The translations under genes and the position numbers were made by a program. A model generated the notes under the pieces. It made no database searches, was not told where the DNA came from, and saw only the letters and a program-made list of their open reading frames with translations. From Mobula hypostoma (lineage: Eukaryota), in the NCBI RefSeq assembly GCF_963921235.1, contig NC_086097.1, positions 137,518,001 to 137,582,000 on the forward strand: a stretch of DNA of 64,000 nt, given 5' to 3'. Positions within the stretch are counted from its first letter, which is position 1; each line of letters begins with the position of its first letter. Below, piece by piece: positions 2,583 through 63,870 of the stretch.

Positions 2583-4350
2583 GCAATTTGAATAGTTAAT
2601 CCTTAGCTGGGAGCTGTTTGTAGCGGCTTTGATGAAAGTACGCTCCACGTTTTATGAGTGCCCAGACATGGACTTGGTGGATGTACTCAGATCCATTGTT
2701 GTTTGCTTTAATAGTTAATATAGTTTTGGGCTTAATATATATATATAAATACTTATTCTTTCTTTGATTTGTAAGTCATTAACATTAGTTGTAGTTTATT
2801 AATTGGTTGGATTTATCTTTTTTGAATACATGGTTACGTATTTTAAATGAATCTAAGATAGCTGTCGTTAGTTCGGTGTTAACTATTGTTAGACATAATA
2901 TGAAAATATTTGGAATTGGTTATTTATGTACCTTTTGTTATGTCTTTCTGGTGGTGGCAACTTTGTAAGCAAGAGCTGCTAACTGGAGACAGGGGTCAAA
3001 GGTCATTAGAGCAGCATGCCGTCTGTCTTTTGGATGGTTTCCGGGTTTTGGGGGGAGGAGGAGGATCTATTAGATTAGTTTTTTTTTCGACTGGGCAGTC
3101 CTGTGAGGTTTTTTTTGGGTCAATTATCTTGTTTCTCTTTCTGATCGAGTCATGCTTTGTCCTTTCTTTGGATTTAGTTTGCACCTGCGCATTAGCTTAT
3201 TTTATAGAAATTTTAAATATGGCTTTTAATAAAATCAATATGATATCTTGGAATCGGAATGGTATGAACCAACCTATTAAGCGCAGAAAGATTTTTAAGA
3301 AATTAAAAACACATCAATGCAGATATTATTTTTGCGCAGGAGACTCATATCCGTAGGCAGGAGGAAAATCGTTCTTTTAAATTTTGGAAGGGATCCTTAT
3401 TTCATTCTTTATCAGTAAATAAAATAAGAGGGGTATCTATTTTTATTAATTCTAAAATCCCTTTTGTACACTTCAACATGGTTACTGATTTAATTGGAAG
3501 ATATTTAATTGTTACCGGTTTGTTATGTGGACAAAAGGTGGCTTTGGTGTGTGGTTATGCCCCTAATATAGATAGCCCTGAATTTTTTAAGAAGATATTT
3601 TCTGTGTTGCCGAATTTAAATGAATATAAGTTGATTATGGGTGATGACTTTAACTGCTGTCTCAATCCGTTGATTGACAGATTGTCCACCAATCCGTCAC
3701 TTCCTAATAAAGCCGCGACTTGTATTAATTCTTTTTTATTAGAATACGGTCCGGTCAATATTTGGAGATTTATGTACCCTACAGATAAGGATTTTTCTTT
3801 TTTTCCACTTGCATACCATAAATACTCAAGAATTGATTATTTTTTGATGGACACACGTTTGGTGCCCTCTGTTGCTGATTGTGCATACGATGTCATTGCT
3901 TTGTTGGATCATGCACCTATGAAGTTAACTTTGAAGTTTTCTGATAATATACTGAAGGTTCCTCAGTGGAGATTTAATGCTACATTGCTACAAGATTCAA
4001 CCTTTGTAGGTTTTATGAAAGAGCAAATTTCACTATTTTTTGAATTAACTACAACTGAGGGAATGTCAGATTTAGTTATTTGGGACACGATGAAATCTTT
4101 TCTTAGGGGATAGATAATTTCATACTTAATAGGTTTAAGAAGGAAAACCAAGGAGGAACTTTTAGTGATTACTGATAGGATTAAAGAAATAGACAAAGTT
4201 TATTCAGTAATGCCAAGTGAAGATCTCTATAAGGAAAGGGTGGAACCCCAAACACAGCATGATTTGCTTTTGACTTTTCCCATTGAGCAGCAACTTCTTA
4301 AATCTAAAAGCCAATTTTATATACATGGAGACAGGTCAGGCAAATTATTA

Positions 4351-7086
4351 ATAGAACATAGAATAGTACAGCACAGTACAGGCCCTTCGGCCCACAATGT
4401 TGTGCCGACCCTCAAACCCTGCCTCCAATATAACCCCCCACCTTAAATTCCTCCATATACCTGTCTAGTAGTCTCTTAAACTTCACTAGTGTATCTGCCT
4501 CCACCACTGACTCAGGCAGTGCATTCCAAGCACCAACCACTGTCTGAGTAAAAAACCTTCCTCTGATATCCCCCTTGAACTTCTCACCCCTTACCTTAAA
4601 GCCATGTCCTCTTGTATTGAGCAGTGGTGCCCTGGGGAAGAGGCGCTGGCTATCCACTATCTATTCCTCTTATTATCTTGTACACCTCTATCATGTCTCC
4701 TCTCATCCTCCTTCTCTCCAAAGAGTAAAGCCCTAGCTCCCTTAATCTCTGATCATAATGCATACTTTCTAAACCAGGCAGCATCCTGGTAAATCTCCTC
4801 TGTACCCTTTCCAATGCTTCCACATCCTTCCTATAGTGAGGTGACCAGAACTGGACACAGTACTCCAAGTGTGGCCTAACCAGAGTTTTATAGAGCTGCA
4901 TCATTACATCGCGACTCATAAACTCTATCCCTCGACTTATGAAAGCTAACACCCCATAAGCTTTCTTAACTACACTATCCACCTGTGAGGCAACTTTCAG
5001 GGATCTGTGGACATGTACCCCGAGATCCCTCTGCTCCTCCACACTACCAAGTATCCTGCCATTTACTTTGTACTCTACCTTGGAGTTTGTCCTTCCAAAG
5101 TGTACAACCTCACACTTCTCCGGGTTGAACTCCATCTGCCACTTCTCAGCCCACTTCTGCATCCTATCAATGTCTCTCTGCAATCTTTGACAATCCTCTA
5201 CACTATCTACAACACCACCAACGTTTGTGTCATCTGCAAACTTGCCAACCCACCCTTCTACCCCCACATCCAGGTCGTTAATAAAAATCACAAAAAGTAG
5301 AGGTCCCAGAACAGATCCTTGTGGGACACCACTAGTCACAATCCTCCAATCTGAATGTACTCCCTCCACCACCACCCTCTGCCTTCTGCAGGCAAGCCAA
5401 TTCTGAATCCACCTGACCAAACTTCCCTGGATCCCATGCCTTCTAACCTTCTGAATAAGCCTACTGTGTGGAACCTTGTCAAATGCCTTACTAAAATCCA
5501 TATAGATCACATCTACTGCACTACCCTCATCTATATGCCTGGTCACTTCCTCAAAGAACTCTATCAGGCTTGTTAGACATGATCTGCCCTTCACAAAGCC
5601 ATGCTGACTGTCCCTGATCAGACCATGATTCTCTAAATGCCTATAGATCCTACTTCTAAGAATCTTTTTCAACAGCTTTCCCACCACAGACGTAAGGCTC
5701 ACTGGTCTATAATTACCCGGACTATCCCTACTACCTTTCTTGAACAAGGGAACAACATTCGCCTCCCTCCAATCCTCTGGTACCATTCCCGTGGACAACG
5801 AGGACATAAAGATCCTAGCCAGAGGCTCAGCAATCTCTTCTCTCGCCTCGTGGAGCAGCCGGGGGAATATTCCGTCAGGCCCCGGGGACTTATCTGTCCT
5901 AATGTATTTTAACAACTCCAACACCTCCTCTCCCTTAATATCAGCATGCTCCAGAACATCAACCTCACTCATATTGTCCTCACCATCATCGTTCCCTCTC
6001 ATTGGTGAATACCGAAGAGAAGTATTCATTGAGGACCTCGCTCACTTCCACAGCCTCCAGGCACATCTTCCCACCCTTATCTCTAATCGGTCCTACCTTC
6101 ACTCCTGTCATCCTTTTTTTCTTCACATAATTGAAGAATGCCTTGGGGTTTTCCTTTACCCTACTCGCCAAGGCCTTCTCATGCCCCCTTCTTGCTCTTC
6201 TCAGCCCCTTCTTAAGCTCCTTTCTTGCTTCCCTATATTCCTCAATGGACCCATCTGATCCTTGCTTCCTAAACCTCATGTATGCTGCCTTCTTCCTCCT
6301 GACTAGATTTTCCACCTCACTTGTCACCCATGGTTCCTTCACCCTACCATTCTTTATCTTCCTCACCGGGACAAATTTATCCCTTACATCCCGCAAGAGA
6401 TCTCTAAACATCGACCACATGTCCATAGTACATTTCCCTGCAAAACCACTATCCCAATTCACACCCGCAAGTTCTAGCCTTATAGCCTCATAATTTGCCT
6501 TTCCCCAATGAAAAATTTTCCTGTCCTCTTTGATTCTATCCTTTTCCATGATAATTATAAAGGCCAGGGAGCGGTGGTCACTGTCCCCCAGATGCTCACG
6601 CACTGAGAGATCTGTGACCTGACCCGGTTCATTACCTAGTACTAGATCTAGTATGGCATTCCCCCTGGTCGGCCTGTCCACATACTGTGACAGGAATCCG
6701 TCCTGGACACACTTAACAAATTCTGCCCCATCTAAACCCTTGGAACTAATCAGGTGCCAATCAATATTAGGGAAGTTAAAGTCACCCATGATAACAACCC
6801 TGTTATTTTTGCACCTTTCCAAAATCTGCCTCCCAATCTGCTCCTCTGTATCTCTGCTGCTACCAGGGGGCCTATAGAATACCCCCAGTAGAGTAACTGC
6901 TCCCTTCCTGTTCCTGACTTCCACCCATATTGACTCAAAAGAGGATCCTGCTACATTACCCACCCTTTCTGTAGCTGTAATAGTATCCCTGACCAGTAAT
7001 GCCACCCCTCCTCCCCTTTTTCCTCCCTCTCTATCCCTTTTAAAGCACTGAAATCCAGGAATATTGAGAATCCATTCCTGCCCTGG
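4351..7086 (-). mobile_element. Young 5'-truncated CR1 LINE inserted in L1 ORF2
   Basis: ORFs 5986-7005 (APE part: YRPP, GDFNFP, SDH) and 4650-6029 ([29 protein letters not shown]); two small frameshifts; (TTCTATG)-type tail at 4351-4365; the L1 frame GKLL|AGQL rejoins across it. Confidence 0.95.
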
Positions 7087-8290: not shown

Positions 8291-9734
8291 TTATACCCAA
8301 CAAAGGAGGGAGAGAGAAACCAGGGAATTATAGACTGGTTAGCCTAACGTCGGTGGTGGGGAAACTGCTGGAGTCAGTTATCAAAGATGTGATAACAGCA
8401 CATTTGGAAAGCAGTGAAATCATTGGACAAAGTCAGCATGGATTTGTGAAAGGAAAATTATGTCTGGAGAATTTCAGAATTTTTTGAGGATGTAACTAGT
8501 AGAGTGGATAGGGGAGAACCAGTGGATGTGGTATATTTGGATTTTCAAAAGGCTTTTGACAAGGTCCCACACAGGAGATTAGTGTGCAAACTTAAAGCAC
8601 ACGGTATTGGAGGTAAGGTATTGATGTGGATGGAGAATTGGTTAGCAGACAGGAAGCAAAGAGTGGGAATAAACGGGACCTTTTCAGAATGGCAGGCGGT
8701 GACTAGTGGGGTACGGCAAGGCTCAGTGCTGGGACCCCAGTTGTTTACAATATATATTAATGACTTGGATGAGGGAATTAAATGCAGCATCTCCAAGTTT
8801 GCGGATGACACGAAGCTGGGTGGCAGTGTTAGCTGTGAGGAGGATGCTAAGAGGATGCAGAGTGACTTGGATAGGTTGGGTGAGTGGGCAAATTCATGGC
8901 AGATGCAATTTAATGTGGATAAATGTGAAGTTATCCACTTTGGTGGCAAAAGTAGGAAAACAGATTATTATCTGAATGGTGGCCAATTAGGAAAAGGGGA
9001 GGTGCAACGAGACCTGGGTGTCATTATACACCAGTCATTGAAAGTGGGCATGCAGGTGCAGCAGGCAGTGAAAAAGGCGAATGGCATGCTGGCATTTATA
9101 GCGAGAGGATTCAAGTACAGGAGCAGGGAGGTACTACTGCAGTTGTACAAGGCCTTGGTGAGACCACACCTGGAGTATTGTGTGCAGTTTTGGTCCCCTT
9201 ATCTGAGGAAAGACATCCTTGCCATAGAGGGAGTACAAAGAAGGTTCACCAGATTGATTCCTGGGATGGCAGGACTTTCATATGAAGAAAGACTGGATGA
9301 ACTGGGCTTGTACTCGTTGGAATTTAGAAGATTGAGGGGGGATCTGATTGAAACGTATAAAATCCTAAAGGGATTGGACAGGCTAGATGCAGGAAGATTG
9401 TTCCCGATGTTGGGGAAGTCCAGAACGAGGGGTCACAGTTTGAGGATAAAGGGGAAGCCTTTTAGGACCGAGATTAGGAAAAACTTCTTCACAAAGAGAG
9501 TGGTGAATCTGTGGAATTCTCTGCCACAGGAAACAGTTGAGGCCAGTTCATTGGCTATATTTAAGAGGGAGTTAGATATGGCCCTTGTGGCTACGGGGAT
9601 CAGGGGGTATGGAGGGAAGGCTGGGGCGGGGTTCTGAGTTGGATGATCAGCCATGATCATAATAAATGGCGGTGCAGGCTCGAAGGGCCGAATGCCCTAC
9701 TCCTGCACCTATTTTCTGTGTTTCTATGTTTCTA
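8291..9734 (+). mobile_element. 5'-truncated CR1 LINE (different subfamily) inserted in L1 ORF2
   Basis: 377-aa ORF 8504-9637 with YLDFQKAFDKVPH, QGSVLGP, FADD, RPHLEYCVQFWSP; 3' hairpin and (TTTCTATG)n tail. Confidence 0.95.
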
Positions 9735-15865: not shown

Positions 15866-17439
15866 TATATGAAATTCCACATAGTAATGAATCAAGAACT
15901 AGCACTTACTAAAGATAAAATAAACATACTAAAATAAATCACACTGAAGACAGAATGACATTCAAATCCCAATAATTTCCGCCTTAAGTTTTAAGGGAAG
16001 TAGTTGATGGTATAGCCATGATCTTCAAAAGTTCAGTTCAGGAATTCAAGTTCACATTCATTGTCATAGGCATATATACACTGGGTAAATACATTATGAA
16101 AATTAGCTTTTTGCAGCAGCAGCACAGCACATACATTGGTTAACAAAAACTTAAAGTAATAAATTATTCAGAACCAATGTGACAAAATAAACAGGGGTTT
16201 TCAAGTCTGTTCAACAACGTGATGACAGTGGAGAAGAAGCTGCTGTGGAATCTTGAGGTGTGGGTCTTCAGGCTCCCTCATGACAGCATTGAGAAGATGG
16301 CATCCAAATGGTGCAGATCCTTGATGACAGATACCACCGTCCTGAGACATTGACTCTTGTGGATGTCTTCAGTGGAATACTGCCTATACAACTCCATTAT
16401 TTAAGAAGGACTTAAGTCTAACCTTCCATGAGAACGTTATAGAATCAATAGTCTAATATCTATTGTGAAGAAGTTATTGGAATCTAAGACCGATTGAATG
16501 ATTATTTAGAGAAGCCTGAAATAAACAGAGAGAACAAGTATTTGTAAAGATTAGGGTATATCTAATGAAAACAACTCTATTTTTGGGTTAATAAGTAAAT
16601 TAACAGTCATGTATTTATATTGGCATCTGAAATGTGCTTGTTAAACTTTCACAGTTAAACTGAAGGAAAATGGTTAATCAAATGAGGGTTAAAGATTGTG
16701 GAATGTACAGCATTTGATTTCGAAAGAATACCTCTTGATGTTTTATAGGTATCCATGTGGGTTGTAGCTACAGCTAGCCGATAGATCGTTTAATGAATTA
16801 GGTAACACTATAAATAGCATGTTTCTATTGACACAAAGGATAGTTGTACAATAAATGATGCAGATGGGAACATCAAGTTACAAAGAGATATTAACAGATT
16901 AAGTGAGTTTGCAAAATTGTGGCAGATGGATTTCAACAAAGATAACTGGGAAGTTTTCCAATCTCAGTAACTCTTGTTCTTAATTAAATTGTAAAATGCT
17001 AGAATGAGGGAAGGTTCAAAGTGATTCAAGTGTCTCCATAAACTTTTCTTGAATATGGAGCAGTCAATTACTTAAAAATACTACTTAAAAAAAGGAGTTT
17101 TTTTCGTCCTAATACAGTACACAATTTCCTGGTATGCAGAGTATAAAAATTGCTGGATACATTCAACAGGTCACACAACATCTGTTACTTAAACAGTTAT
17201 AGAGTTAACATTTCAAGGTGATGTCCCTTTGTCTGGATTCAGAAAACAACCCCAAAAATAAAACTCCATATGCTGGAAATCTGAAACATAAAATGGAAAA
17301 TGTAGGCCACTTTTCTGGGAAGAGAAACAGAAATATTTCAGGTTGTTTATCAAGAAATCTTCCTTTTGTTCAATATATTGATCCCCACAAAGGCAACAGA
17401 GAACTATGACAGGACAAAAGAAACTATCTATAGTAGAGT

Positions 17440-17720
17440 CAAGCAACACACATCAAAGTTGCTGGTGAATGCAGTAGGCCAGGCAGCATCTCTAGGAAGA
17501 GGTACAGTCGACGTTTTGGGCTGAGACCCTTCATCAGGACTAACTGAAGGAAGAGCTAGTAAGAGATTTGAAAGTGGGAGGGGGAGGGGGAGATCCAAAA
17601 TGATAGGAGAAGACAGGAGGGGAAGGGATGGAGCCAAGAGCTGGACAGGTGATTGGCAAAAGGGATATGAGAGGATCATGGGACAGGAGGCCTAGGGAAA
17701 AGGAAAAGGGGGAGGGGGGT
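17440..17720 (-). mobile_element. Penelope-like pLTR fragment with degenerate hammerhead (17506-17541)
   Basis: Reverse-complement homolog of 1-238; core CTGATGA intact but GAAA changed to AAAA. Confidence 0.7.
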
Positions 17721-20371: not shown

Positions 20372-20772
20372 TTCAACACTTTATATTCTGTCTGGGTAGC
20401 TTCCAGCCTGATGGCATTGAACTTCTGGTAATGCCCCCCCCCCTCATTCCCCCTCACCATTCCCCATCACCTCTCGCTGGTGCTCCTCTGCCCTCTACTT
20501 TCTTCCATGGCCTTCTGTCCTCTCCTATCAGACTCCCTGTTCTCTGGCTCTGTATCTCTTTCACCAATCAACTTCCCAGCTCTTGCCTTCCCCTCCTGAT
20601 TTCACCTAACACCTTGTTTTTCTCTCTGCTCTCCTCCACCTTTTAAATCTACTCATGTTTTTTTTTTCTCCAGTCCCACCAAAGGGTCTCAGCCCAAAAC
20701 GTCGGCTGTACTCTTTTCCCCCCATAGATGCTGCCTGGCCTGCTGAGTTCCTCCAGCATTTTGTGTTGTGTT
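20372..20772 (+). mobile_element. Penelope-like element 3' end (GIY-YIG C-terminal remnant + pLTR)
   Basis: QHFIFCLGSFQPDGI at ~20374-20418 resembles the EQHLIFRLGxLQPxG(L/M)N end of PLE endonucleases; followed by the same pyrimidine-rich UTR and a decayed hammerhead (~20672-20707). Confidence 0.65.
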
Positions 20773-20774
20773 GC

Positions 20775-35369: not shown

Positions 35370-35970
35370 CAAGTTGCGCAGTCTCTGACGTCACGTTATA
35401 GTCAATGTTACCATTGCATCATCGATGACGCCACGATTTACCGCTCCGTCTCCGCATCGGCCGGATTTCGGGAAGTGCCACTGTAATAGGAATTACCACT
35501 GGGGGAGGGTGACTGCAAATAAACGGAAAGGGGGATTAAGTACGAGAGCAGGGAAAGTCACCCCGTTTGGTCAGGTTTCTAAATAGAGCAAAAACTCGAG
35601 TAAGACACGAAGGTCGACCCACCTTTTTATATTTTGTACCGTTAAGGGTGGGCCTCTCGCACCGACATAGCGCTGCCAAGGCCCGGCCCCCTGCCCCCTG
35701 CCCCCCTCTTGCCACCGTGACTCGGGACGGGACGGGCCGGGCCGGGTGGTGACGCCACCGGGAGGCGGTGACGGCAGACTCCGGACAACATGGCGGCTGA
35801 GTCATCAGGAGCGGGGCTGTGAGTAAACAAGCCGACTCCGCGTTGCGGCGGGCTCCTAGGGGCTTGGTCGCTGGGCAGAATGGATGGCAATAGCCCAACA
35901 GGCGGGGCTGCGGTTACAGGGGCGGGCGGCAGATATCCGCGATCGGTGGCGCAGGCTGAGCCGACGCCCT
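35370..35970. promoter_or_regulatory. CpG-island promoter of ABHD5
   Basis: Densest GC/CpG-rich non-repeat stretch in the window, spanning exon 1. Motifs: CRE TGACGTCA 35386-35393, ATTGCATCA 35413-35421, TGACGCCA 35426-35433 and 35750-35757, ETS-type GGAAGTG 35471-35477, YY1-type AACATGGCGGC over the ATG. Confidence 0.85.
35790..35818 (+). CDS. ABHD5: ABHD5 coding exon 1 (MAAESSGAG-L)
   Basis: ATG in good Kozak context (ACAACATGG) inside the CpG island; donor CT|GTGAGT at 35819; phase 2 matches exon 2; MAAE start as in human ABHD5. Confidence 0.85.
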
Positions 35971-42625: not shown

Positions 42626-44158
42626 GTAAGGAACAATAGTTAAACATCCCTGTCTATTTGGTAGTCTTAATTTTTTTATGCAGTCTGCACTTATAGCAGA
42701 AAAGATGAAGAACGTGAAAGTAATAAGTGCTGCTGCATTTATCTGGTGTGCTAGTTATGCCTTGAGAGAGAAACAGAGTCAGCATTACAGATTGATGATA
42801 CTTAGAACAAAAAAACTATTTAGAAAGCAAACATGCTTTAAGTTGCAGAGAAGTGGGAGAGATGGAGAAAATAATATCTCTGATAGGGTAGAGATGAAGG
42901 AAAATTGGGAAGAATGAATCAAAATTTACATTTGCAAACAAAAGAGACCTTAGCCTCCTTAACATCTGTCACAGCAACTGTTTGGTCAGCTCCAAGGAAT
43001 TGTGGCTGGGAATCTGGTCTCCACAACCCAACCCTCTCTTGGTTTCCACTGCCTATGACAGGCTTTCTCATTGTTCACTATTGCGTACATTTGCATGGAG
43101 TGCTCCTGAGAAAATAGCATCGGTCGTCAAAGACTTGCACTATCCAGGCCATGCCCTCTTCTCACAACTATCATCCAGCAGGAGGAATTTCAGAAGCCTT
43201 AGATACCACACCACCAGGTTCAGGAACTGTTATTAGCCATATAACAATTACAGCGTGGAAATAGGCCATCTCGGCCCTTCTAGTCCGTGCCGAACTCTTA
43301 CTCTCACCATAATAACCATATAACAAATGATTATTACCCAACAACCATCAGGCTTTTAAACCAGCATGGATAACCACTATTCTGAACTGATTCAATGACC
43401 TACAGACTCACTTTCTACTCTTTACAACTCATGTTCTCATTATTATTTTTATCCTCAGTTTGCCTTTTTTGAACATTGTTGTTTGTCAGTCTTTGTTTAT
43501 GTAAAGTTTTTCATAAAATTCTATTGTATTTCTTTTCTTCCTGCAAATGCCTGCAAGAAAGTGAATCTCAAGGTAACATATATGTACTTTTTACTTTTAA
43601 TGCTGACTTTTCAAACCCTCTGTGTTGCTACTTCAGGCACATTTGATTTCTAGGTTGAAATGTTGACTCTTTTTCTCTCTCCACAGAAACTGCCTGACCT
43701 AGGAGTATTTTTTAGTTTGTATTTCAAATTTCTAACGTCTGCAGATTTATTGTATTTTTGATGTATGGATGGTGGAGATATAGGAATGCATGATTATCAT
43801 GAGGTTTGCTTAAGTTATTTTAAGAATTTCATACTGAACAAGGAGATATGATATTACTTGAAAAAGTAATCCATTGAAAATACACATTTCAAAGTGAACT
43901 CCTACAATGTCTCTGTTGTATACCAACTAAACTCCTTACATCAAAAGCTTTGACCTTTTATTTAGAAAGATGAGGGGGAAGGACAAGAACAAAGACAAAA
44001 ATTAAATTTGAACTGATTTAAAAGAAAGTACCCTCATTGTACCCCAGATCTAGACTATTGTGATGTTTGGAATATCATGGATATTTTGAATTAATAAACT
44101 CAAAAAGTTCGAGGATTTTCCTTCAGTAACGTGTTTAGTTACGTAAACACGAGGAACA

Positions 44159-44194
44159 AGTCCTGACGAAGGGTCTCGGCCTGAAACGTCGACT
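44159..44194 (+). ncRNA. Putative minimal type-I hammerhead ribozyme (Penelope-derived), ABHD5 intron 2, sense
   Basis: AGTC-CTGACGA-AGGGTCTCGGCCT-GAAAC-GTC^GACT: core boxes CUGANGA and GAAA, stem I AGUC/GACU, short stem II, loopless palindromic stem III, GUC triplet ending at 44190. Confidence 0.65.
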
Positions 44195-44689
44195 GTAGCT
44201 CTTCCTAGAGATGCTGCCTGGCCTGCTGCGTTCACCAGCAACTTTGATGTGTGTAACTTGTTTAGTTCATCTTTTTGTCCTCTCACTGAATTTAAATTAG
44301 CCTTGAGAGTTTCAGAAGAATCAAGAAAGTTGTAGGTTCCTTTTTATATCTCCCAAAGGCATATGGGGAAATTTTCTTACATTAAGGAATTCAATATTTC
44401 CCACACAAATTGAGATCAGAGGCATTGACACAGCCCCTAAGGAATTATACTTCCAGGGAACTAAACCAAGATGACCACACATTGGATGCAATGACTAAAA
44501 CCTATCCATCACCACTAATTGAGTTTAGTACCCAGAAGGACTTTGGGCCTAATAGGTTTTTAATAGACTAAATTCGATCAAATTGAATATCTGAATCCAA
44601 GTTGTGCTGCTCACAGTGGCAAATGTGTTAAATTCAAAAAATGCTGAGATAAACAAATCAGGTTGATTTTAATTTTTTTTATTTCGCAG

Positions 44690-50339: not shown

Positions 50340-53300
50340 TGTCAAGAAATGTAGAGGAGGCTTGACCCAAAAGCAGAGCAACAGAGACAATTCAGCAGGG
50401 AACAATAATTTTAATAATAGACTACCAAAATAGCAAGCCTCGAAGGGCCTCAAAATGAGAGAACAGAAACTAAACACAACAGGTAACAAGTTAAACTTTA
50501 GGCAGAGAGAGTGAAAGCTAGGAGCAACTGTTTGAGGCCTACTGATTCGATGAGAGAACTAGTACTGTGGATAAGAACTGGGGTTAAATAGGCTACAGGT
50601 GATGAGTCTGGAACAAGTGGCAAATGAATCCGATAGGCTGGATAGAGAATGGGAGGTGTCAGCAAGAGCAGGCCTGCAAGGACACCCCTCCCCCATGGCT
50701 CACCCTAATAGCCCAGGACGATTTGCATGGGTCTGGTAGAACTCATCGATGAGTGACAGATCCAAGATATAACTGGACAGCCCCCAAGACCTCGCTTCTG
50801 GGCCCTACTCTCCCGAATCGACCAGGTACTGCACACCCCATCCATGGTGATGTGAATTCATCAACCAGTGAACTTGTACACTGCACCACTTCCACTGTCC
50901 TAGGTTCCAGAGGTGCAGATTTCAGATGGGTAGAGTGGTCTATGGACGACGGACTTGAGGCAGGACACATGCAAGTTAGGTGTGATCCTGAGGACAGTGG
51001 CAGCTGGAGATGGTAAGGTCTCGGCCTGAAACGTTGACTATACTCTTTTCCATAGATGCTGCTTGGCCTACTGAGTTTCTCCAGCATTTTGTGTGTGTTG
51101 CTTGCATTTCCAGCATCTGCAGATTTTCTCTTGTTTGGAGATGATAAGTGAGTGGACTGATGCAATGTTTGGTCTTGAAGGGATCAATGAACCAGGGAGA
51201 GATCTTGTGGGAGTTGGTGCACAGGGGTAGATCTTGGATGGACAGCCAGACACTGTCCTCAGGCCGGAGTAGTCTAGCTGGGCACTGACTATGGTTAGCC
51301 TGGTGGCAATAGGCACTGTTGGCGGCTAGGATGACCCTCCATGCAGACTTCCATGTATTCCGGCAGCTGCGAACCAGGGCTCTGGTGGATTGGACCTCCA
51401 CCGTGGGGTCCTCTGCAGAGAATAACAGGGGTTGGAAGGTGTGAAAGGGTGACTTACCTTTGGCAAAGGAGGTGTGTAGATTGTGGGACATTTCGGCCCA
51501 GAGCAGGCGCTTCTTGCACTTGGAAGGGTTAGAGGCAGCAAAGCATCACAGAAACTTCTCCACTTGCTGATTGGTTTCTTCTGACTGACTGTTGAACTGC
51601 AGATGATAGCCACAGGACAAATTCACTTTAGTGAGGAAGAGGGAGCAGAATGCTCACCAGAAGTAGGAGACAGATTTGGGGCCCTGGTCCAACACAAAGT
51701 CCTGAGGGAAGTTGCAGAGGCGAACTACATTGTTGGAGACCAGATCTGCTGTCTCCGTGGTGGATGGAAACTTGGGGAGGGCAATGAGGGCCTGGGAGAA
51801 CCGGACCACCACTGTCACGATCAGCGTGGCCCCATCAGAAGGTGGCAAACCTGTGATGGAATCCACGAAGATTGGGAACCATGGTCATCGGGGGTGTGCT
51901 GACTGGACTGGGCACACTGAGGGCAGGTAGTGATGAATTGACGCACATATGTAGACACAATATGTAGACGCACAATTGACACACATTTGCAGAAAATCCA
52001 GGATGTTTCGTATGGCTGGAGAGGGATGAGCAGTGGGCCCACTGGAGTGCATCAGAACGCACAGCCGACGGATGGTATGTATGGTTGTCAGGTGTGTCGG
52101 GTAGGACAAACTCATGCTGCAGGGCCTGGTGGATCTGGTTCTCAAGGTCCGAGACAACTTGGATGAGGATTTGAGAGGATGGAATAATGGGCTAAGTGTA
52201 GGTCTCTGTTTCAGTTGGGTCAAAATGTCAAAACAGGGTGTCTGCCTTTATGTCCTTGGAACTGGGACGTTGGGAGATGGTGAAGCTGAATTGTTTGAAG
52301 AAGAGGACCCAGTAAGGCTGACAGGGGTTGAGTTGATGGGTTTGAGGTTCTGGTGGTCAGCCCAGATCGGGAAAGTCTCGGTGTTTCCCATCAGCCAATG
52401 TCTCCACTCCTCCAAGGCTATTTATTAGAGAGTAACTCCCTGTCTCCCACTCTATAATGGCACTGTGTAGAATGGAGAATGGGAGCAGTGGGAAAGCGTC
52501 TCTTGAGCTACTCAAAAGTGTGGTCCATGGCAGCAAACCAGGTTGTCCGTGAGCTAGGTGGTTTGGTGAGGGAGGTGAGAGAGGTGGTGATTTGGCTGTA
52601 GTTTCTGATGAAACGGCAGTAGGAGTTGGAGAAGCTCAAGAAGTGCTGTAGCTGAGGGTGTGTGGTTGGGCAATCCAACGGCGATGTGCACTTTCTCTGT
52701 GTCCATGGTTATCCCTTGGGGGTGAAAGGGTGTTATCCAGGAAGGAGATGACTGGGGTGTGGAACTGGCATTTTTCTAACTTGCAGTACAGTCAGATTTT
52801 GAGGAGACGCTGAAGGACTGAACAGATGTGGTTTGGGGTTCTTGGAGAAAGATGAAGTTGCTGTCGAGGTAGCCAAACACCTAACTGTGTAGTGTCTCTT
52901 GGAGAAGCTCATGAATGATGGCTTGGAAAACACCTGGACTGTTGGAAAGTCCGAAAGGCATCACTGAGTATTCGTAGTTGCCAGTGGGTATTATGAATGC
53001 TATTTTCCATTCATTCCCCAGCGGATCTGGATCAGGTTGTAGGCAATCCATAGATCCATTTTGGAGTAGACCCCATGGAGTGTTTCGAATGTGCTCTCCA
53101 TCAAGGGGAGAGAGTCGTGGTTCTTAATGGTGATTTTAATGAGTCCACGGTAGTCATTGCAGAGACGAAGACACCCATCTTTCTTTTTGACAAAGAAGAA
53201 TCCTGCACTGGCTGGGGACTGGGATGGCTGAATGAAGCTGAGCTGTAGCTTTTCAGCGATATAGTCATTCATGGCTTGGGTCTCAGGAGGTTAGAGGGAT

Positions 53301-60275: not shown

Positions 60276-60648
60276 GATACACAAATTGGATTAACTGCTA
60301 CTGAATAGCCTGGGGTTACTTGCTTCAATCTCAGGTAAAAAGAAGATTTAAAGTAAAGAATTGTAGAATTGAATTCCAGTGACAAGAAACTCATTAACTT
60401 CGATTTGCTTTCTTCAACCATTTGATGATTGAAATTTCATGGCTCTTACTGCATTAATTTGTTTTATCTCAGAAGATGGGTAAATCTTTTCAGTTTAACA
60501 TCCGATTCACATTGCTGAGCAGTTGCATGATGACAACAATAAAGTGTTGTCAACTTTGCAGCTTTCTCCAGCTGAATCGTAATAAAAGAAGGAATGGAAA
60601 TAAAATTGTAGAAATACCTTAAAACCTTTACCTCCTCTATGTTTTTAG

Positions 60649-60835
60649 TGGTGAAACGGCTTTCAAGAATATGACCATTCCTTTTGGTTGGGCTAAACAG
60701 CCTATGCTTTTGAGGATTAATCAGATTCAAGAGGACATCTCCATTACAGTGATTCATGGAGCGCGTTCCTGCATAGATGGTATCTCCAGGAAACAGATAA
60801 AGGCACTAAGACCAAAATCCTCAGTGAATGTAGTA
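60649..60835 (+). CDS. ABHD5: ABHD5 coding exon 6 ([20 protein letters not shown]...HGARSCIDG...[10 protein letters not shown])
   Basis: TTTTTAG acceptor, GTA|GTAAGT donor, 187 nt, ends phase 0; conserved [15 protein letters not shown] and GARSCIDG. Confidence 0.97.
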
Positions 60836-60991
60836 GTAAGTAAATGAGACCATCTATTTTTAATCAGGTTCTTGATATAAAGCCTACCAGAAATTGGACA
60901 ATAAATGGGAACTATGGAAACTTGGGTTGTTGGGCACTGTATCAAGGATGAGTCTTGTAAAATTGTCATGAAGGAACAACCTCATACATAA

Positions 60992-61273
60992 AAGTAAAAC
61001 ACATAAAAGTTGCTGGTGAACGCAACAGGCCAGGCAGCATCTCTAGGAAGAGGTGCAGTCGATGTTTCAGGCCGAGACCCTTCGTCAGGACTAACTGAAG
61101 GAAGAGTGAGTAAGGGATTTTCCTTCAGTTAGTCCTGACGAAGGGTCTCGGCCTGAAACGTCGACTGCACCTCTTCCTACAGATGCTGCCTGGCCTGCTG
61201 CATTCGCCAGCAACTTTTATATGTTTTACTTGAATTTCCAGCATCTGCAGAATTCCTGTTGTTTGCGTTTAAA
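60992..61273. mobile_element. Penelope-like insertion made of two pLTR fragments in inverted orientation
   Basis: Arms 60992-61103 and 61120-61231 (112 bp each, ~6 mismatches, 16-nt spacer); perfect 14-bp TSD AACCTCATACATAA at 60978-60991 and 61274-61287. Confidence 0.85.
61131..61166 (+). ncRNA. Putative minimal type-I hammerhead ribozyme (Penelope-derived), ABHD5 intron 6, sense
   Basis: Same 36-nt sequence as 44159-44194; predicted cleavage after 61162. Confidence 0.65.
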
Positions 61274-63149
61274 AACCTCATACATAATGTGTGTACAATC
61301 AGTATACAACTTGCCTGTTTCAGTGCAGAGATAGACCTGTTCATCTATTTCCACCCTTAACATTACATTCGCATAGATGCTTACTTCATTGCTTGTTCAT
61401 TTTTGCATACAAGCAGTAAGTATTTGAGCTTTTAAAGATTTTTTGAAGTTTCACTCTTGCTGATTCCTGACTTTGATGGCCAGCTCTATTGGCTGATGTG
61501 CAATTTGCTAGATGCTTCATGATTTTTTTGCGACCTCACTTCATCACTTTCTAAAACTCTCTGCACCATTTACTCTTATTGAGTGTGAAGAAGCCAAGAA
61601 TTTACAATATAATTACTTCAATGAAATAAGGTGCTTTGTCCAGTCTATTTATTGAGTGTACAGTCTTCTGAAGTGATGATTTTCCCTGGTGTTCTTAACT
61701 TACATTCATTTGGGCAGGCACAAGTTGGAAGGGTTAAATCAGCCTTCAGAGTTCAGTTAATTGTCTCTTGCTTCCTTTTTCTGTCTTAAAGTTATTAGAA
61801 AAGGAGCAGCTCATTACAGTCTTTATCACCATGGATGCTAGTTTTCGTTACATGCAATCTTCCTTGGGAATATTCTCATGATTATCTCATTGCTTCTTCA
61901 AGACATGCTGTCAAGGGAGCTGACCTTGGTTATCTGAATGTTTTAGTTCAACTATTGGAATCACATGCAAATTCTAAAGTACATTGTTCAGAGACTTTTG
62001 TAGTAACGTCTCAGTAATTGTGCTTTAACTCTCCGAGTTTTCCAAAGTGTAACTAAATACCCAAATTTCAGGGACACATCATCAAGATGATATCAATATT
62101 TAATATATAACTAATAAAATAAACTATCAGTATCTTCAATATGCTATTAATGTATGATTGATAACTGATAATGTATATATTATCAATGTTCTGAGAAAAT
62201 CTGTATCTAAGCTAAAGCATTTGTATTTGAGGTACTGTTGTATGTCGATTCTTTCTTATTGTAGTTCATTTCAGCTTTTGTATTTCAGACGACTCCTGGG
62301 TATCCTAAGTTGGCATATTTTTGACAACGTTTCGTCCTTTGCTCTTAATAGATCCGATTCTAGCCTCTAAAGTGACCTTGTTTTAGAGGAACACAAAGCT
62401 AATCTTTCAAGTTATGGTGGCATTTAATGGAATGGCTGGAGGGAAATTTTTATTTGAGGGGGAAAAATGCTTTTAAAGTTTATCATTGTAAGATGTTGAC
62501 AAAGATTTACACCTGCTGAAAATGTGAAACTAGCTACCTAAGGAAGTAAATGAGGTGATTACGATAAGCAGTGACTGGACAAGTGTATGAGAAAGAGAAG
62601 AATGGAGGGTTTGTCTCTTAACTCTAGATAAGAAAAAATGGGACAAGGGTTGAACCACGGATGGACTGGTTTGAACCACAAACTGGTTTTTATCTCATTA
62701 TACTCTCACGGTAACTTCTAAATTACTTCTTAAGTACATAAAATTATATAGATTACAACTTTAAGAACTAAACTAATATACTTTAAATCACTTTAAGGTC
62801 ATCCAACCCTACAGATTTACCTAACATGGTGAATTACATTCCAGTGTAATGCAGAATTCAGACAATGCTATACTGGAGTCTTAGGGATGACACAGTTAGT
62901 CAAAGTCCCATCTATCCTCTGAAGTTATCACATGTCACTTTTTGAATAATAGGAGTACTCCCTGAAGTCCCAATTTTAAATGAAGCCTTTTGGATGCTTT
63001 ATCTATATTGACTGATACATGATATTATCAATATCTCAATCTCTTGAAAAGAAAAATAATAGACATTTACAAAACTTTGGAGCCTTGAAATTTACTTGTG
63101 AATGTTCTAAGATATAACCATCAAATAATCTAAAGCAAGAATCAATCTT

Positions 63150-63209
63150 TCTCTCTCTATCTCTCTCTCTATCTCTCTATCTCTATCTCTATCTCTATCT
63201 CTCTCTCTA

Positions 63210-63241
<32 letters not shown>
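63150..63241. repeat. Compound (CT)n/(CTAT)/(AT)n microsatellite
   Basis: Directly visible. Confidence 0.95.
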
Positions 63242-63334
63242 ATTATATCAAAATTTAAAAAATGCTTTATACATGTATCTCTAATGTAAAATTATATTAA
63301 ATAAAATCTTAAATTGTTCTACATCAAAAAAAGG

Positions 63335-63870
63335 ATTATGGAAGCATTCAGCAGGTCAGGGAATATTGATCGAGAAACAGATTTAACATTTCAGTACTGA
63401 GACCTTTCATCAAAACTGGGAAAGAGTGAAAGCAAGTCAGTTTTCAGAAACAGAGAACATTGGGGAAAGATGGGTAGAACACAGGGAATACCTCTAATAG
63501 GTTGAGACAATGTGACAGTTAGAATCAGAAAGTTTCTGTTTCAGTGTTATGTACTGCTAATTGCAGATCCATCGGACATGTCAGCAGGCTAGACTAATTG
63601 AAAGAGAGAAACAGATGGACGACAGGCAGAAGTGCCAGTTCAGATGCGGACAGAAAGAAAGAGCGTGTTACCCAAAGTGGGAGTATTCAGTACTTAGTCC
63701 AGACGGCTGCAAAGTGACCAAGTGGAGGATGAACTGTTGTTCCCACTCAGGCTTGTGCTGATTTAGTCTGTAGTACTGTAGGAGTTTGCAGACAGATGGG
63801 TCAGTGGAACTGAGTGGGGAATTAAAGGAGAGAGATCAAGCCTGTAGGCCAAGAAGGCTGCACAACATAA
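63335..63870 (-). mobile_element. Old Penelope-like element remnant
   Basis: Minus strand 63668-63745 reads WEQQFILHLVTLQPSGLSTEYSHFG* (PLE endonuclease end); downstream decayed TTGATGAAAGGTCTC...TGAAATGTT hammerhead-like motif at ~63385-63420. Confidence 0.6.

Follow-up and report, generated by a model that had tools for sequence, protein, structure and literature searches.

The hairpin found in the last intron of ABHD5 is an ordinary, well-formed head-to-head insertion of a Penelope-like element (PLE). We consider it very probable that a single insertion of an EN+ PLE left two 5'-truncated terminal-repeat copies head to head, one of them tailed, within a 14-bp duplication, and that the resulting unit likely has no selected role in ABHD5. 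The anatomy of the unit is clear, its family is identified, the site is empty in a relative and thousands of like units are present in the genome. The window referred to below is the whole stretch of DNA analysed, 64,000 nucleotides in length, and the features concerned are the following.

60647 to 60835, plus strand: exon 6 of 7 of ABHD5, with 97% identity to stingray ABHD5, placed by the exon map and by RNA-like contigs whose ends show its junctions with exons 5 and 7
60836 to about 64163, past the end of the window, plus strand: intron 6 (last intron) of ABHD5, with the donor GT at 60836
60978 to 60991, plus strand: left copy of the 14-bp target-site duplication, a direct repeat found as a single copy at the empty site of organism D
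60992 to 61119, minus strand: left arm, an inverted, 5'-truncated, tail-less PLE terminal-repeat copy of 128 nt, including 61104-61119, which ends at +97 from the core C
61061 to 61088, minus strand: minus-strand hammerhead core, in which a CpG-type change at 61063 breaks the ACGU palindrome
61120 to 61231, plus strand: right arm, a sense 5'-truncated PLE terminal-repeat copy, whose first 9 nt (61120-61128) are the end of a pyrimidine tract plus CAG and resemble an acceptor
61131 to 61166, plus strand: minimal type I hammerhead, with CUGACGA at 61135-61141, helix II at 61142-61154, GAAA at 61155-61158, a palindromic ACGU and the predicted cut after C61162
61232 to 61273, plus strand: PLE tail of about 40 nt, carried by the right arm only, which thereby ends at +136; in tandem copies this tail runs into the next copy
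61274 to 61287, plus strand: right copy of the 14-bp target-site duplication, a direct repeat, also compared with the empty site of organism D

The unit thus reads, in order, as duplication, inverted tail-less pLTR piece, pLTR piece with the tail, and duplication. Its arms (60992-61103 and 61120-61231, 112 nt each) are 95% complementary with exactly six mismatches, where the preliminary description had given about six; in the RNA stem, which contains 57 adenosines, these become four mismatches, three of them A.C (at 61025, 61202 and 61221), and two G.U pairs, with no compensatory pairs. The RNA is predicted to fold at -217.1 kcal/mol, compared with -81.3 +/- 5.5 for shuffled sequences (z -24.7, none of 100 shuffles being as stable). 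The direct repeat that had been described around the arms is perfect over its 14 bp, and it is a true target-site duplication, since a contig of organism D shows the empty site. The 16 nt separating the arms had been regarded as a loop; the spacing stands, but the segment belongs to the element, because the left, minus-strand copy extends through 61104-61119 (its match covers 60992-61120), so that both copies meet with an overlap of 0-1 nt. The insert measures 282 nt, both copies are cut just upstream of the hammerhead, and the two cores lie 46 nt apart.

The proposed origin, a PLE insertion with an inverted truncated pLTR, is borne out, as the arms are the 3' end of an element encoding reverse transcriptase (RT) and a GIY-YIG nuclease. 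The features of an EN+ PLE insertion are all found here: an adjacent inverted, 5'-truncated copy in head-to-head orientation, a tail of 30-40 bp at one end only, and a target-site duplication that encloses the unit as a whole. Two other loci (L029 and L146) carry PLE-type RT motifs and a GIY-YIG/CCHH region upstream of this 3' end, as in EN+ PLEs; the Pfam match for GIY-YIG (E 0.00097, 19.8 bits) falls below the curated cut-off of 22.6. L146 has the partial tandem arrangement that forms pseudo-LTRs: a truncated copy occupies 3024-3789, and after it comes a full copy whose end is at 6799. The linker between RT and nuclease contains a CxxxxCxxC motif, which suggests that the family may belong to the Neptune clade. 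The region 2990-6799 of L146 is a near full-length PLE that carries at its 5' end an inverted piece consisting of the tail alone, and its open reading frame has stops and frame changes.

These observations bear on the possibility that the hairpin is a foldback DNA transposon (MITE) or an artefact of assembly, to which we give practically no credit. Short, palindromic and bounded by a duplication, the insert does have the general appearance of such an element. Its continuity with an RT/GIY-YIG element, the one-sided tail and the DNA contigs of two species that enter the insert from unique flank all speak against it. Moreover, the junction differs between units, so that no fixed palindromic unit is being copied whole, and the variable junctions together with the retroelement continuity refute both versions of this explanation.

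The PLE insertion documented here is one of very many. The genome contains 48,865 exact 25-nt ribozyme cores, and exact searches give 1,906 head-to-head pairs with cores 0-29 nt apart and 1,003 with cores 30-60 nt apart, that is, at least 2,909 pairs; as both 13-nt anchors had to be exact, these counts are lower bounds for the number of units. The larger number in the closer class would fit a pile-up of turn points near the front edge of the hammerhead. When neighbours are compared over distances of up to 4 kb for the 100 cores that come first on C1, 12 of 99 pairs have a head-to-head arrangement, one is tail to tail and none is on the same strand, and in 55 random 10-kb stretches (550 kb), which contain 61 copies, there are 13 head-to-head pairs compared with 3, 2 and 2 of the other kinds. 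When the right arm is compared with the genome, 10 of its 29 best matches have an inverted partner of at least 100 nt within 1.5 kb. The window itself contains other members of the family, 70-90% identical, at 51017-51135, 17439-17719, 20374-20774 and 1-235; one of them is in sense orientation, with a truncated core, in intron 4 of ABHD5, and the other three are outside the gene. A short translated piece at 8600-8665, present also in flanking stretches, resembles a fragment of a LINE reverse transcriptase and gives a weak tblastn match.

The hairpin is a lineage-restricted insertion of limited age. The empty site was compared in contigs of 4 runs out of 24 listed. In organism D, which is about 5% diverged, one contig of 4,689 nt joins 60980 straight to 61277 (letters 881 to 882 of the record), and the 296 nt that are skipped equal the spacing of the direct repeats, i.e., the insert plus one copy of the duplication. 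In contigs of organisms A and B, the unique flank runs into both ends of the insert. The flanks differ at 8 positions in 702 nt in organism B and at 24 in 614 nt in organism C, whose site is probably empty too, as judged from depth arithmetic and contig offsets only. The arms themselves differ at four non-CpG positions in 102 sites, a number that has P 0.03 at 1.1% divergence and 0.57 at 3.9%, and that would be expected only of an insertion older than the split between A and B, which is a point against the reading given here.

A set of 55 short units was compared: the present locus, 48 of 50 listed pairs with cores 30-60 nt apart (the own locus, counted once, and one near-duplicate being left out) and 2 and 4 from other searches. 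Without exception, these 55 units have the tail on one arm and lack it on the other, and the longest string shared by the flanks, i.e., the duplication, is 13-15 nt in 35 of them. Measured against a reference extending past the tail, the short arm ends between +85 and +103 in 46 of the 55 and the long arm between +123 and +142 in 53, the present locus having +97 and +136. The two arms of a unit are more alike than random copies: divergence is 3.3% within units, a value that none of 5000 permutations reached, compared with 7.2% between units (51 units, four having been dropped for too little overlap), and the arms agree at subfamily sites in 49 of 52, 50 of 54 and 44 of 45 cases. Rare variants common to both arms are seen in 12 of the 55 units (for instance L123, with three, L135 and L001), which may point to one template for both arms or to conversion of one arm by the other. 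In the present locus, both arms carry two substitutions (61225 and 61228), which have exact matches at only 3 places in the whole genome; these were considered as a subfamily mark and rejected as such, and, as the other two matches (L092 and L093) are terminal copies standing by themselves, the search did not lead to a source element. At 61180, 61206 and 61221, on the other hand, the right arm carries minor variants of the family that the left arm does not have, and for this reason a single template is harder to argue for at this locus than for the majority of units. Gene conversion after the insertion, or the activity of one subfamily at a time, could likewise make the arms similar.

The one-tail rule, the duplication of 13-15 bp and the shared arm variants fit two primings at the two RT starts known in vitro, on RNA of one source. 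In this regard, PLE protein cleaves and extends both target strands in vitro and starts at two RNA sites that bound the tail, as reported in PMC11167929. Among the models of formation we lean towards this route, in which both target ends prime RT. The GIY-YIG nuclease of the element would nick the two strands 14 nt apart, and each 3' end would prime reverse transcription on RNA of one source element. One RT start would be distal (about +130 to +136, tail included) and the other proximal (about +94 to +97), and both copies would stop just upstream of the hammerhead before being joined end to end.

The alternative, somewhat doubtful in our opinion, concerns formation only and leaves the element and its lack of function the same: the fold-back or self-priming of one nucleic acid strand would take the place of the two target ends. 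Self-priming has been proposed for head-to-head PLE units in PMC3846280, and it would agree with the near-identity of the arms in many units (13 of 51 have identical arms, compared with 2% of random pairs) and with the junctions, which overlap by 1-6 nt in 14 of the 55 units and are in some cases perfect palindromes, their position varying from unit to unit. Fold-back alone, however, leaves unexplained that the second arm stops at the tail boundary (46 of 55), the place of the second RT start in vitro according to PMC11167929, and in a few cases (3 of 52 and 4 of 54) the two arms disagree at a subfamily site. Priming from two target ends thus remains the route that we favour.

As regards the ribozyme, the intact-core hammerhead claimed for the right arm at 61131-61166 is indeed there, with its core at 61135-61162 and stem I formed by 61131-61134 and 61163-61166, and so is its antisense copy in the left arm, whose minus-strand version reads GAAACATC. 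The elements of a minimal type I hammerhead (core CUGANGA, GAAA and UH, together with helices I and II) are all present at 61131-61166, and a palindromic stub of the dimer type (ACGU, 61158-61161) replaces helix III, which is unable to close in the monomer because only 2 nt lie between A61158 and U61161. The G10.1-C11.1 pair, highly conserved and not strictly required, is absent, as the T at 61154 gives a G.U or an A-U closure depending on the register; T occupies this position in 13 of 16 young copies. A scan of the 64-kb window with Rfam returned no hammerhead family at E<=1, which is no evidence against the hammerhead since the motif is too minimal. In full copies of the element (L146, 3550-3660), stem I is immediately preceded by a long run of pyrimidines that closes with CAG, and the insert keeps only the last 9 nt of this run; a similar intron end next to the D. 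virilis Penelope hammerhead is reported in PMC4209133.

Folding predictions place the right arm alone 5.6-10.7 kcal/mol from the hammerhead fold, with a stem I probability of at most 0.02, and in the co-fold of two copies of the core the dimer hammerhead is not the form of lowest energy, a result that carries no weight in either direction. Within the full hairpin, the hammerhead fold is predicted to lie 68-75 kcal/mol above the hairpin, even with transcription only to 61170, and its stem pair probabilities are 0.0000. In the experiments reported in PMC4209133, single minimal PLE hammerheads did not cleave in vitro and dimers cleaved weakly, and PMC11167929 describes an anole PLE hammerhead that cut only with the PLE protein present. 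The ribozyme of the right arm would likely be inactive as a single copy, regardless of the hairpin.

It had been suggested that the antisense arm is made first and traps the ribozyme, so that the insertion silences itself. The burying of the hammerhead in a duplex is upheld by the folding predictions, but the priority of the antisense arm is nothing special, being true of any head-to-head unit read from either strand. Trapping is thus predicted, yet there is little to trap, because single minimal PLE hammerheads do not cleave in vitro and the anole one needs the PLE protein (PMC4209133 and PMC11167929). In its strong form, the idea is that the antisense arm silences a ribozyme that would otherwise be harmful and thereby lets the insertion survive in a sense intron, and we regard it as extremely improbable. 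The predicted loss of the hammerhead fold, also during transcription, agrees with it, as does the under-representation of tandem hammerhead retrozymes in Xenopus introns (bioRxiv 10.64898/2026.07.22.740005). The same geometry is nevertheless found in all head-to-head units, on both strands, and the monomer, which lacks helix III, is predicted to be misfolded even by itself. The same intact core is present in 9 of 17 unselected young copies, and ABHD5 itself contains, in intron 2, an intact sense core that no antisense arm covers:

44159 to 44260, plus strand: control copy of the same PLE family in intron 2 of ABHD5, with an intact core at 44163 and no antisense arm over the ribozyme

Self-silencing as a special or necessary property of this insertion is therefore not supported, given the thousands of like units, the monomer without helix III, the uncovered core in intron 2 and the contigs of RNA-like runs spliced from exon 6 to exon 7. 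The intron 2 copy (44125-44275) ends at the tail boundary and is flanked by a 9-nt repeat, and the approximately 12 nt that precede it resemble an inverted tail stub; this copy, too, may thus be of the head-to-head kind, its second arm being reduced to a vestige. The preferred reading, a PLE insertion with no selected role, would have the arms form a duplex of about 112 bp in the pre-mRNA, predicted to bury a ribozyme that as a monomer would not cut anyway, and this duplex would leave with the intron.

The match to stingray ABHD5 makes a ray the likely source of the genome. The setting of the insertion in the gene was taken from the mapping of the stingray protein, which gives seven ABHD5 exons at 35781, 42541, 44689, 50006, 55230, 60647-60835 and about 64164. 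The location that had been given, in intron 6 with the first arm starting 157 nt past the end of exon 6, agrees with this map. An exon-like reading frame at 61793 was considered as exon 7 and rejected, as exon 7 lies at about 64164. Intron 6 also holds a compound (CT/AT) microsatellite at 63133-63250, where contigs break, and another repeat at 63400-63523, marked by raised depth; an A>G difference at 63467 is seen in a single run (X10), one without matched DNA.

Four RNA-like runs (X9-X12) of the 24 listed, from two studies, were compared as contigs only; their RNA nature is guessed, and one of them is flagged as probably DNA. In all four, one deep contig covers exon 6 and continues past it, and its loose ends in X10 and X11 lead to exon 5 before and exon 7 after exon 6, as expected of spliced RNA. 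Intron 6 is present from 61247 onward, downstream of the insert, at a depth of about 4-9 compared with 26-385 for the exon (four of four runs); the part from exon 6 to the hairpin and intron 5 are absent from these contigs, and 60837-60919 has no covering contig in any of the four, the depth being equal to the share of the exon. The contigs are those of Logan, made by Minia3 with graph simplification like that of SPAdes. Simplification of this kind prunes short shallow edges between deep ones, and such pruning can explain the missing part between exon 6 and the insert, which was for this reason given no weight as evidence. At the positions of the arms, the contigs of these runs are dominated by other copies of the family.

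The low-depth contigs of intron 6 downstream of the insert, in four of four RNA-like runs, raise the possibility that the insertion alters ABHD5 RNA, through use of the acceptor-like site at 61128, through a hairpin that slows the removal of the last intron, or through a cut or start in the element that yields RNA beginning there. The pyrimidine-CAG at 61120-61128, for which an in-frame read-through was computed, would in the first case replace exon 7 by 34 codons and a stop. We consider these effects very improbable: no joint from 60835 to 61129 is found among the 11 joints listed, the acceptor would be enclosed in the stem and loop and preceded by several AG dinucleotides, and the intron contigs begin at 61246-61247, which is the repeat boundary also seen in the DNA runs (61247 and 61251). 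Signal from the last intron is, besides, common in poly(A) libraries. A bolder version, to which we assign a still slightly smaller chance, is that the hairpin, common to two ray species, rewires the last intron of ABHD5, with its own acceptor or a protein-assisted cut starting RNA at the insert and the antisense arm setting the amount; if this were true, the thousands of one-tailed hairpins would be a ready-made class of intronic switches.

On the reading that we prefer, an insertion with no selected role, the duplex would rather be a passive target. A long intramolecular duplex within a transcript is what ADAR acts on, and here a 112-bp stem is predicted in the intron of a gene with spliced contigs. 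Self-folding repeats (Xenopus Harbinger) and lizard Penelope are heavily edited by ADAR, and strong hyper-editing occurs in elephant shark, according to PMC5625713; passive editing is for these reasons a fair prediction, and, by analogy, we would on balance expect the hairpin duplex to be a passive ADAR target. The suggested roles of the hairpin as a Dicer substrate or a splicing modulator find no support. With the edited repeats of PMC5625713, the hairpin shares a stem of about 110 bp, a short loop and its place within a transcript, the present likeness coming from folding prediction only.

A number of reports describe systems to which the present unit can be compared. The typical arrangement of PLE insertions in PMC8557442 and PMC3846280 is that of the present structure: as in EN+ PLE units (PMC8557442; Pen2a_Av in PMC3846280), an inverted 5'-truncated copy is adjacent at the 5' end, a tail of 30-40 bp is found at one end only, the whole unit sits in one target duplication, and there is a small overlap or palindrome at the junction. 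In contrast to the rotifer PLE examples, the insert is minimal (282 nt), the duplication is mostly 13-15 bp instead of 8-10 bp, and there are thousands of units. The hammerhead resembles the PLE minimal type I hammerheads of PMC4209133: the core is conserved, helix I is short, one more nucleotide precedes helix II and a palindromic stub replaces helix III. That paper already noted dual minimal motifs on opposite strands, 100-700 bp apart; here, by comparison, the cores are 46 nt apart, and helix II has 3-4 bp and is closed by G.U or A-U and not by G-C. In the case of Poseidon of Anolis carolinensis (PMC11167929), the tail is likewise bounded by two RT starts, the hammerhead lies in the pLTR, and both target strands are cut and extended in vitro, as would be predicted for the present family. 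The present family differs in that its RT and nuclease are separated by a Cys-rich linker, which PMC8557442 describes for the Neptune/Nematis clades.

The hammerhead is also similar to the intronic hammerheads of amniotes (RECK, CTCL and DTNB; PMC6155905) in being of type I, in sense orientation and in an intron. Those of the RECK type are conserved across vertebrate classes, unlike the present one, which is absent in a relative about 5% diverged, lacks helix III and has tens of thousands of copies. A domesticated hammerhead of this kind was rejected, the site being empty in organism D and probably also in organism C. A non-LTR retrozyme was rejected as well, as its definition requires at least two head-to-tail hammerheads (bioRxiv 10.64898/2026.07.22.740005) and the cores here are on opposite strands. 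A literature search on Penelope, hammerhead and cartilaginous returned no paper; the supplements of PLE papers, which lay outside that search, may hold shark or ray families.

All together, our results allow us to place the hairpin among the regular products of PLE insertion. The single locus matters little in itself, since the genome contains at least 2,909 such short units in head-to-head orientation. If the hairpin did alter how the last ABHD5 intron is processed, a PLE ribozyme inserted recently would be affecting a gene of lipid metabolism, for which examples are rare. From the point of view of the family, the statistics of its units are of modest value for understanding how PLEs make inverted units.
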